This document shows, piece by piece, positions 8,522 through 13,744 of a stretch of DNA of 64,000 nt. A program made the position numbers and the translations under genes. The first letter of the stretch is position 1, and the number at the start of each line of letters is the position of its first letter. Origin of the DNA: Escherichia coli (lineage in GTDB: Bacteria; Pseudomonadota; Gammaproteobacteria; Enterobacterales; Enterobacteriaceae); NCBI RefSeq assembly GCF_003334335.1, contig NZ_QOWQ01000012.1; one strand, written 5' to 3'. The notes beneath the pieces are model-generated. The model was not told where the DNA came from and searched no databases. It saw only the letters and a program-made list of their open reading frames with translations.

Positions 8522-9937
8522 GTGAAACAAAGCACTATTGCACTGGCACTCTTACCGTTACTGTTTACCCCTGTGACAAAAGCCCGGACACCAGAAATGC
8601 CTGTTCTGGAAAACCGGGCTGCTCAGGGCGATATTACTGCACCCGGCGGTGCTCGCCGTTTAACGGGTGATCAGACTGCCGCTCTGCGTGATTCTCTTAG
8701 CGATAAACCTGCAAAAAATATTATTTTGCTGATTGGCGATGGGATGGGGGACTCGGAAATTACTGCCGCACGTAATTATGCCGAAGGTGCGGGCGGCTTT
8801 TTTAAAGGTATAGATGCCTTACCGCTTACCGGGCAATACACTCACTATGCGCTGAATAAAAAAACCGGCAAACCGGACTACGTCACCGACTCGGCTGCAT
8901 CAGCAACCGCCTGGTCAACCGGTGTCAAAACCTATAACGGCGCGCTGGGCGTCGATATTCACGAAAAAGATCACCCAACGATTCTGGAAATGGCAAAAGC
9001 CGCAGGTCTGGCGACCGGTAACGTTTCTACCGCAGAGTTGCAGGATGCCACGCCCGCTGCGCTGGTGGCACATGTGACCTCGCGCAAATGCTACGGTCCG
9101 AGCGCGACCAGTGAAAAATGTCCGGGTAACGCTCTGGAAAAAGGCGGAAAAGGATCGATTACCGAACAGCTGCTTAACGCTCGTGCCGACGTTACGCTTG
9201 GCGGCGGCGCAAAAACCTTTGCTGAAACGGCAACCGCTGGTGAATGGCAGGGAAAAACGCTGCGTGAACAGGCACAGGCGCGTGGTTATCAGTTGGTGAG
9301 CGATGCTGCCTCACTGAATTCGGTGACGGAAGCGAATCAGCAAAAACCCCTGCTTGGCCTGTTTGCTGACGGCAATATGCCAGTGCGCTGGCTAGGACCG
9401 AAAGCAACGTACCATGGCAATATCGATAAGCCCGCAGTCACCTGTACGCCAAATCCGCAACGTAATGACAGTGTACCAACCCTGGCGCAGATGACCGACA
9501 AAGCCATTGAATTGTTGAGTAAAAATGAGAAAGGCTTTTTCCTGCAAGTTGAAGGTGCGTCAATCGATAAACAGGATCATGCTGCGAATCCTTGTGGGCA
9601 AATTGGCGAGACGGTCGATCTCGATGAAGCCGTACAACGGGCGCTGGAATTCGCTAAAAAGGAGGGTAACACGCTGGTCATAGTCACCGCTGATCACGCC
9701 CACGCCAGCCAGATTGTTGCGCCGGATACCAAAGCTCCGGGCCTCACCCAGGCGCTAAATACCAAAGATGGCGCAGTGATGGTGATGAGTTACGGGAACT
9801 CCGAAGAGGATTCACAAGAACATACCGGCAGTCAGTTGCGTATTGCGGCGTATGGCCCGCATGCCGCCAATGTTGTTGGACTGACCGACCAGACCGATCT
9901 CTTCTACACCATGAAAGCCGCTCTGGGGCTGAAATAA
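8522..9937 (+). CDS. phoA: alkaline phosphatase
   Basis: GTG start at 8522 giving [21 protein letters not shown] signal peptide and 471 aa; contains the ...[15 protein letters not shown]... active-site region. Confidence 0.96.
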
Positions 9938-11609: not shown

Positions 11610-12419
11610 TCAGGATTTGCTGAGTTTTTCTGATTTTTCCATACACTTCGTCATCGCTTCGATCACTGCAGCACGGAAGCCTTTCTCTTCCAGTACGCGT
11701 ACCGCTTCAATGGTGGTGCCTCCCGGTGAGCAGACCATATCTTTCAGTGCCCCCGGATGTTCTCCCGTTTCCAGCACCATTTTTGCGGAACCCATTACCG
11801 CCTGAGCGGCAAATTTATACGCCTGGGCGCGTGGCATCCCGCCCAGCACGGCGGCGTCGGCCATCGCTTCGATAAACATAAATACGTAGGCTGGCGAAGA
11901 ACCGCTCACACCGACCACCGGGTGGATCATCGGCTCAGCAATTACTTCCGCTTCGCCAAAGCAGCGGAAAATATTCAGCACATCAGCGGTATCTTCTGGG
12001 GTTACCAGCGCGTTTGGCGTTACGGAGGTCATCCCGGCATTAACCAGTGCGGGAGTGTTCGGCATGGCGCGGATAATTTTCCGGTCATGGCCCAGCGCGC
12101 GGGCAAGCTGGTCGAGCGTGACACCTGCAGCAATAGAAACGACCAGAGAGTCTTTATTCAGGCTGGAGGTGATTTCGCTAAGCACTTTAATCATGATGCC
12201 AGGTTTAACGGCAGCAAAAATGATGTCGGCGATTTGCGCCACTTCTTGCGCCGATTCTGCGGCGTTGATGCCGAACTGGTCATGCAGGGCGGCGACTTTA
12301 TCCGGGGAGGGGGTGTATACCCAGATTTGCCCTGGAAGCACCTGACCGCTGGCAATCAGACCGCCGAGAATGGCTTTTCCCATATTGCCGCAGCCAATAA
12401 AACCGATTTTCTTTTCCAT
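11610..12419 (-). CDS. proC: pyrroline-5-carboxylate reductase
   Basis: Start moved to the ATG at 12419 ([20 protein letters not shown]..., Rossmann GxGxxG) with RBS just upstream; 269 aa as recalled. The 305-aa track ORF is an upstream extension. Confidence 0.94.
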
Positions 12420-12998: not shown

Positions 12999-13125
12999 TG
13001 TAATTTATTATTTACACTTCATTCTTGAATATTTATTGGTATAGTAAGGGGTGTATTGAGATTTTCACTTTAAGTGGAATTTTTTCTTTACAATCGAAAT
13101 TGTACTAGTTTGATGGTATGATCGC
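12999..13125 (+). promoter_or_regulatory. aroL control region: TyrR boxes and TrpR-like operator
   Basis: tgtaat-N6-tttaca at 12999-13016 and tggaat-N6-tttaca at 13075-13092 match the TyrR box consensus TGTAAA-N6-TTTACA; gtactagtt (about 13100-13110) resembles a trp operator half-site; tatgat near 13116 is a plausible -10. Confidence 0.65.
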
Positions 13126-13179
13126 TATTCTCATGACACCGGCTTTCGCCGCATTGCGACCTATTGGGGAAAACCCACG

Positions 13180-13704
13180 ATGACACAACCTCTTTTTCTG
13201 ATCGGGCCTCGGGGCTGTGGTAAAACAACGGTCGGAATGGCCCTTGCCGATTCGCTTAACCGTCGGTTTGTCGATACCGATCAGTGGTTGCAATCACAGC
13301 TCAATATGACGGTCGCGGAGATCGTCGAAAGGGAAGAGTGGGCGGGATTTCGCGCCAGAGAAACGGCGGCGCTGGAAGCGGTAACTGCGCCATCCACCGT
13401 TATCGCTACAGGCGGCGGCATTATTCTGACGGAATTTAATCGTCACTTCATGCAAAATAACGGGATCGTGGTTTATTTGTGTGCGCCAGTATCAGTCCTG
13501 GTTAACCGACTGCAAGCTGCACCGGAAGAAGATTTACGGCCAACCTTAACGGGAAAACCGCTGAGCGAAGAAGTTCAGGAAGTGCTGGAAGAACGCGATG
13601 CGCTATATCGCGAAGTTGCGCATATTATCATCGACGCAACAAACGAACCCAGCCAGGTGATTTCTGAAATTCGCAGCGCCCTGGCACAGACGATCAATTG
13701 TTGA
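13180..13704 (+). CDS. aroL: shikimate kinase II
   Basis: 174-aa ORF with P-loop GPRGCGKTT; matches recalled AroL. Confidence 0.95.
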
Positions 13705-13744
13705 TTTTCGAGCGCCTATACTTAACGTTCATCCCGTGAAATAA

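Follow-up and report, generated by a model that had tools for sequence, protein, structure and literature searches.

TyrR boxes, a putative half-perfect TrpR operator and tandem transcription starts in the aroL control region of Escherichia coli

Introduction

Which operator sites lie in front of aroL in Escherichia coli, and on how many promoters do they act? A preliminary description of a 64,000-nucleotide stretch of E. coli DNA (contig NZ_QOWQ01000012.1 of assembly GCF_003334335.1; the whole stretch is called the window here) placed a dense cluster of TyrR and TrpR sites within about 130 bp before this gene and let two aromatic amino acid repressors converge on a single promoter. That aroL is under the joint control of TyrR and TrpR is already known and belongs to textbook biology (Lawley & Pittard 1994, J Bacteriol 176:6921, as cited in PMC4997321). 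aroLM is repressed by TyrR and aroL is repressed by TrpR (PMC5343134), and in a tyrR mutant of Y. pestis expression of aroL was up 4.7-fold (PMC4325908).

TyrR boxes are classified by their agreement with TGTAAA-N6-TTTACA. Strong boxes match this sequence at 10 or more of the 12 positions and boxes below this value are termed weak, the G-N14-C pair being invariant (PMC4374768). [quoted passage not shown] Here we combined matrix scans, a comparison of syntenic loci and public maps of transcription starts for the region upstream of aroL.

Results

Identity of the locus

The 2,001 bases around aroL are exactly those of NC_000913.3 405,500-407,500, the match beginning at position 12,275 of the window; coordinates of K-12 MG1655 were obtained by adding 393,225 to the window coordinate. 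According to the open reading frames and the K-12 annotation, the genes around the site are proC (minus strand), yaiI, aroL, yaiA and aroM, and this synteny (proC / yaiI-aroL-yaiA-aroM) agrees with the aroL control region of E. coli K-12. A 501-base query spanning the region was matched in 5,426 of 5,426 complete E. coli genomes, with yaiI / aroL as the annotated genes. The intergenic region between the stop of yaiI (12997) and the ATG of aroL (13180) comprises 182 bp with 35% G+C. We conclude, with a probability of about 0.93, that the region is the characterised aroL-yaiA-aroM control region of E. coli K-12, on which TyrR would act through two strong boxes and TrpR through a half-perfect operator. 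The features are listed in Table 1.

Table 1. Regulatory features upstream of aroL. Positions are those of the window. Conservation is given as mean identity in the alignment of syntenic loci where a number is shown.
Feature	Position	Strand	Sequence and remarks	Conservation
Strong TyrR box, distal	12999..13016	.	TGTAATTTATTATTTACA; 11/12 to TGTAAA-N6-TTTACA, G-N14-C kept	Arms 0.95 (9 other taxa); N6 spacer 0.59
Extended -10, distal (main) promoter	13037..13045	+	TGgTATAGT; 7 nt before the start	TGnTATAGT conserved, n = G/T/C
Weak TyrR box candidate (middle box)	13052..13069	.	TGTATTGAGATTTTCACT; 8/12, G-N14-C kept; spans -1..+17 of the distal start	Arms 0.58
Distal (main) aroL transcription start, 127-nt leader	13053	+	Kim 2012 TSS-seq, Cappable-seq, SMRT-Cappable-seq	
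Strong TyrR box, proximal	13075..13092	.	TGGAATTTTTTCTTTACA; 10/12 to TGTAAA-N6-TTTACA, G-N14-C kept	Arms 0.88; N6 spacer 0.65
Predicted -35 of the proximal promoter	13094-13099	+	TCGAAA	Not conserved, 0.43
TrpR operator candidate	13102..13119	.	GTACTAGTTTGATGGTAT; +50..+67 of the distal start, -28..-11 of the proximal start	GTACTAG half-site 0.94
Extended -10, proximal promoter	13114..13122	+	TGgTATGAT; sole promoter-like site in the consensus scan	
Proximal aroL transcription start cluster, ~50-nt leader	13128..13130	+	Cappable-seq, SMRT-Cappable-seq	
aroL coding sequence (shikimate kinase 2; b0388; the regulated gene)	13180..13704	+	Open reading frame, K-12 annotation	

Strong TyrR boxes and a putative TrpR operator site

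In the published numbering, the TyrR sites at 12999-13016, 13052-13069 and 13075-13092 are, as we take it, box 3, box 2 and box 1, respectively. A consensus scan of the ~64,000 positions of the window yielded one site at 11/12 and three at 10/12, and two of these four sit 76 bp apart in front of aroL. Both reach at least 10/12 and carry the G-N14-C pair. With the weaker candidate between them, the boxes are laid out with spacings of 53 and 23 bp.

For scoring beyond the consensus, sites of K-12 promoters (tyrR, aroF, tyrP, aroP, aroG, mtr, trpLE, aroH and trpR) were collected into symmetric matrices, 10 boxes for TyrR and 4 operators for TrpR. Since aroL itself was omitted from the training set, the scan of the window is not circular. 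Among 63,983 positions, the distal box took rank 1 (22.1 bits) and the proximal box rank 2 (18.2 bits) for TyrR; the training sites themselves span 9.7-22.7 bits, which includes both values. When the AT-rich intergenic region (182 bp) was shuffled 5,000 times with its dinucleotide composition kept, no shuffle contained a pair of TyrR sites scoring 18.2 bits or more. The two good TyrR boxes named in the preliminary description are present at these positions, and the matrix scans that it had proposed gave significant matches for TyrR as well as for TrpR.

Elsewhere in the window, the third-best match to the TyrR matrix was TGTATTTTTCCCTATACA at 48271-48288 (14.0 bits, 9/12, with the G-N14-C pair), which lies in the xseB-thiI intergenic region 36 bp upstream of thiI and is the sole other top match in promoter-type intergenic DNA. 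No published connection of TyrR with xseB or thiI is known to us, and this match upstream of thiI probably arose by chance.

A trp-operator-like gtactagtt had also been noted upstream of aroL. This element is indeed found there: GTACTAGTT occurs at 13102-13110 and nowhere else in the window, against an expectation of 0.07. The full TrpR palindrome GTACTAGTTAACTAGTAC had no match with up to three mismatches in the 64-kb window, and a matrix was therefore needed for TrpR. By this matrix, GTACTAGTTTGATGGTAT ranked first in the window with 13.9 bits, and the 5,000 dinucleotide-shuffled versions of the intergenic region contained no TrpR site that scored as high. Compared with the palindrome, the site agrees at 13 of 18 positions, with a complete left half (7/7) and a degenerate right half (4/7). 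The training operators (trp, aroH, trpR and mtr) score 22.9-27.6 bits, well above the value for aroL. A near-tie of 13.5 bits was seen for GCACTATTGCACTGGCAC at 8532-8549, within the signal-peptide coding sequence of phoA; hence the TrpR matrix score alone proves little for the aroL operator. Judged from its bases, the aroL TrpR site is a putative weak, half-perfect operator.

Conservation among the Enterobacteriaceae

Ten syntenic loci were fetched via AroL homologues ranging from 93% down to 65% identity. They comprise an E. albertii type (L132), a divergent E. coli allele (L133), a Salmonella enterica cluster (L135; these names are those of the clusters) and loci of C. amalonaticus, C. koseri, Intestinirhabdus, Enterobacter, Kosakonia, Phytobacter and Lelliottia. 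Identity in the alignment was measured against E. coli, and the background amounted to 0.55.

With the same matrices, nine of the ten loci yielded two strong TyrR boxes spaced 74-77 bp from each other, one around -180 and the other around -105 relative to the ATG. The sequence GTACTAGTTTrrTGrTAT is present about 78 bp before the ATG in eight of these ten loci, the exceptions being Phytobacter and Enterobacter. The G-N14-C columns of both strong boxes are invariant in 10/10 taxa. As shown in Table 1, the arms of the strong boxes are conserved while their N6 spacers vary, as one would expect for a protein that reads two hexamer arms. This conservation across genera independently supports the strong boxes and the TrpR half-site as probable protein binding sites. 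Together with the top rank of the 18-mer on the TrpR matrix, the conserved GTACTAG bears out the trp-operator-like element of the preliminary description.

Some loci depart from this layout. The whole proximal module, i.e. box 1, the TrpR site and the proximal -10, is missing from the Enterobacter locus (L138 1420-1500), and Phytobacter is devoid of the TrpR half-site. In the E. albertii-type locus (L132 1501-2112), AroL was called with 203 aa compared with 174 aa, and no yaiA was called downstream, which suggests a C-terminal extension or a changed stop of AroL in that lineage.

Two transcription starts of aroL

The alignment brought to light a conserved block, TTGnTATAGTAAG at 13036-13048, which reads as an extended -10 in which n is free (G, T or C). 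A common geometry became apparent for both promoters: a strong TyrR box is followed after 20-21 nt by TGnTATnnT. From this geometry, transcription starts were predicted near 13052 and 13129, and these predictions were then compared with public maps. In the TSS-seq data a single aroL start is given at v2 405,502 (136 reads); the 51-mer printed as its upstream sequence has the G of window position 13053 as its last base (Kim 2012). Cappable-seq reports both starts, with relative read scores of 4.74 at v2 405,502 (window 13053) and 7.35 at v2 405,579 (window 13130). By SMRT-Cappable-seq, full-length aroL-yaiA-aroM transcripts begin at v3 406,277 and aroL-yaiA transcripts at v3 406,353. The shift between v2 and v3 coordinates is +776, as checked against the K-12 sequence and Kim 2012. 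The proximal start at 13128-13130 is not among the aroL starts of Kim 2012. aroL starts were not found in the TSS supplements of PMC10301672 and PMC4681348, and a search of public data for condition-resolved maps (M9 versus rich medium) of the two aroL starts found none.

Each start is located 7 nt after its own extended -10. The centre of the distal box is at -45.5 from the distal start. The proximal box occupies +23..+40 of the distal start (centre +30.5), and its centre is at -46.5 from the proximal start. Thus, only the distal box is situated upstream of the main start at 13053, and the elements are not simply stacked before one promoter. Of the notion that two repressors converge on one promoter, the joint control by TyrR and TrpR holds, but there are two tandem starts rather than a single promoter. 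Conservation of the proximal -10 extends over more genera than that of the distal one: TGnTATnAT of the proximal promoter is kept in 9/10 taxa (0.92), while the distal extended -10 is restricted to Escherichia, Citrobacter, Salmonella and Intestinirhabdus. For K. pneumoniae, an aroL start has been mapped 3 nt after the distal strong box (PMC3415461 supplement). We also considered a tandem duplication of two box-plus-promoter modules as the origin of this arrangement and rejected it, the similarity of the spacers being at the level of chance (equalled in 1,195 of 2,000 shuffles).

Further starts were seen in and around the region. A weak start on the minus strand at v2 405,540 (window 13091; 4 reads), assigned to proC, falls inside the proximal TyrR box (Kim 2012). 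A minus-strand -10 (TACAAT) shares bases with the left half-site of TrpR, and this hexamer is not conserved in Citrobacter. Most probably, the minus-strand start at 13091 is incidental. yaiA has a start of its own at window position 13729 in the aroL-yaiA spacer, which reaches a Cappable-seq score of 719 (v2 406,178) compared with 4.7-7.4 for aroL and is also listed in Kim 2012. Because this start is very strong, most transcription of yaiA(-aroM) should be independent of the TyrR/TrpR region. In addition, SMRT-Cappable-seq shows read-through from the yaiI promoter (v3 405,741; window 12516) over yaiI-aroL-yaiA and beyond 13704. No terminator-like site was predicted between yaiI and aroL, and together with the read-through this means that some aroL mRNA must traverse all operator sites.

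The position of the starts bears on another explanation of the motif matches, namely that they arose by chance in AT-rich DNA or that their conservation stems from an RNA element in the 127-nt leader. Low G+C content of the region, the AT-rich TyrR consensus and the inclusion of box 1 and the TrpR site in the transcript from the distal start speak for it. Nevertheless, we consider this explanation very improbable. The sites were not reproduced in any of 5,000 composition-matched shuffles, and conservation is confined to the arms of the boxes and spares their N6. An origin by chance or base composition is ruled out by the shuffles and the footprint. With regard to RNA, the leader had no Rfam match at E <= 1, its fold was not exceptional (z = -1.73; 13 of 200 shuffles fold as well) and its remainder (13131-13165) has diverged as fast as the background, which makes a leader RNA element unlikely.

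The middle TyrR box

A weaker third box was proposed at 13052-13069. This candidate is present and has the characteristics of a weak box, since it matches at fewer than 10 of 12 positions, retains the G-N14-C pair and adjoins a strong box. It is neither significant by itself nor conserved. On the TyrR matrix it takes rank 39 with 5.1 bits among the 63,983 positions of the window, 88 window sites reach at least 8/12 with the G-N14-C pair, and the local AT-rich background produces scores of this kind with a frequency of 0.0023 per position. Neither a statistical excess nor a selective constraint was seen for the middle box, whose arms are conserved at the level of the background (0.58 versus 0.55), and its G-N14-C pair has been lost in the Citrobacter loci and in that of the E. 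albertii type.

What makes the middle box plausible is solely its canonical spacing. It starts exactly 23 bp before the strong box at 13075, and the same offset of adjacent boxes recurs at aroF, tyrP and aroP. The chance of finding such a score at the required offset is ~0.01, which is marginal. In Enterobacter, Lelliottia, Phytobacter and Klebsiella, a weak box is found 23 bp upstream of the distal strong box and there is no middle box.

These data raise the question of whether only two TyrR boxes are functional, the middle box being a weak match of little effect that arose by chance or is specific to a lineage. We regard this as a serious possibility, although a somewhat less than even one. 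It would agree with the low rank of the middle box, the many comparable consensus matches in the window, the near-background identity of the arms and the loss of G-N14-C even in the E. albertii-type locus. Published mutagenesis reportedly found box 2 to be non-essential, and the lack of conservation fits this reported dispensability. On the other hand, the exact 23-bp offset is that of the weak/strong pairs at aroF, tyrP and aroP and is rarely met by chance with such a score, and the middle box overlaps the main start, an effective spot for contact by a hexamer. Moreover, the weak box that other lineages have next to the distal strong box, again at 23 bp, suggests turnover of weak boxes rather than their absence.

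Discussion

Our reading of the region as the known aroL control region, with two strong TyrR boxes and a half-perfect TrpR operator, permits the following model. [quoted passage not shown] Bridging of the strong boxes, whose centres are 76 bp apart, would enclose the -10 and the start of the main promoter (13037-13053). TyrR bridged in this way would sit over and downstream of the main start and shut off transcription, and the weak middle box at 13052 would be at most a helper. Tryptophan-bound TrpR on 13102-13119 would add a tryptophan-dependent component from a site that is far downstream of the main start and that covers -28..-11 of the second, presumably weaker start at 13128-13130.

We infer the looping geometry, and how labour is divided between the promoters, in part from earlier work. 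The 1994 study is said to have described three TYR R boxes and one TrpR site at aroL, of which boxes 1 and 3 were essential and box 2 was not, and reportedly observed a phased DNase I hypersensitivity that indicates a loop. Binding of TyrR at aroL, and of TrpR in the presence of tryptophan, is reported there as well. The two boxes said to be essential flank the main -10 and start at an interval of 76 bp, and the geometry thus fits this loop model. However, 76 bp correspond to ~7.2 helical turns, which are imperfectly in phase and count against a loop. A possible IHF site was reportedly noted as well; in our scan of the region for the IHF consensus WATCAANNNNTTR, every candidate had at least two core mismatches and no convincing site was found.

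How TrpR acts is of particular interest in view of the two starts. The tryptophan effect is said to occur only in tyrR+ cells with intact boxes, and an insertion of 4 bp that moves box 1 further from the TrpR site reportedly abolished this effect and made tyrosine repression stronger. Canonical TrpR operators overlap core promoters. TrpR might be mainly a classical occluding repressor of the proximal promoter that makes no contact with TyrR, and the restriction to tyrR+ cells would then reflect a small proximal contribution that is masked by the derepressed distal promoter. We think this possible, but doubtful. The idea is in line with the position of the operator over -28..-11 of a start that is seen in two Cappable-type datasets. 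Furthermore, GTACTAG is conserved within the spacer of the proximal promoter, where RNA polymerase imposes no sequence constraint, and this points to a repressor. Operator and proximal extended -10 are together present in nine taxa and together absent in Phytobacter and Enterobacter, a co-occurrence that may, however, simply reflect phylogeny. The reported insertion would hit the -35/spacer of the proximal promoter and could explain both the lost tryptophan effect and the stronger repression by tyrosine. Conversely, TrpR protection was reportedly slightly enhanced when TyrR was present, which favours cooperation. Both datasets that support the proximal start belong to the method family of one laboratory, the start is missing from Kim 2012, and our search for condition-resolved TSS data yielded none. 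In its extended form, which we likewise put forward only tentatively, aroL would have two tandem promoters of the same design, of which the proximal one is more widely conserved, and the TrpR operator would be there to occlude the latter; the tryptophan effect would then be due to masking and not to cooperation of TyrR and TrpR.

The arrangement of two strong boxes and a half-perfect TrpR operator can be compared with known systems. Foremost among these is the published aroL region itself (DeFeyter, Davidson & Pittard 1986; Lawley & Pittard 1994), which is the same DNA (100% identical to MG1655) and reportedly has three TyrR boxes and a TrpR site, as seen here, with two boxes that matter, a middle box that matters little, and control by tyrosine and tryptophan. 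To this model our analysis adds the support by matrices and shuffles, the footprint in ten taxa and the overlay of transcription starts with a second start under the TrpR site.

The aroF-tyrA region also has three TyrR boxes, with spacings of 52 and 23 bp compared with 53 and 23 bp at aroL, and shares with aroL the tyrosine-dependent repression by the hexamer (PMC10170061). The two regions differ in the order of the boxes by match (11/12, 10/12 and 8/12 at aroF; 11/12, 8/12 and 10/12 at aroL) and in that aroF is controlled by TyrR only and lacks a TrpR operator. At mtr, TyrR boxes and a TrpR operator lie side by side as they do at aroL, and the mtr operator GTACTCGTGTACTGGTAC also has a right half of the TGG type. 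It is a much better palindrome, though (22.9 versus 13.9 bits), and TyrR serves at mtr as an activator, from boxes located upstream of the -35 (PMC4374768), whereas at aroL both proteins repress. With the operators of trpEDCBA, aroH and trpR, the aroL site has the GTACTAG half-site in common. In contrast to these, it retains one intact half-site (13/18) and is located at +50..+67 of the main promoter instead of in the promoter core; an overlap with a core promoter exists at aroL only if the proximal start is counted.

The main value of this analysis is that of a positive control, as a reading from the sequence alone recognised the operators of TyrR and TrpR. The element that goes beyond the textbook is the overlay of tandem promoters and its bearing on the mode of action of TrpR. 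Deregulation of aroL is routinely engineered in strains producing aromatic amino acids (PMC5791370, PMC4997321), and for this reason the layering of TrpR and TyrR at aroL is of some practical interest. If followed up, the tandem-start overlay could simplify the account of how control by tryptophan is layered on control by tyrosine.
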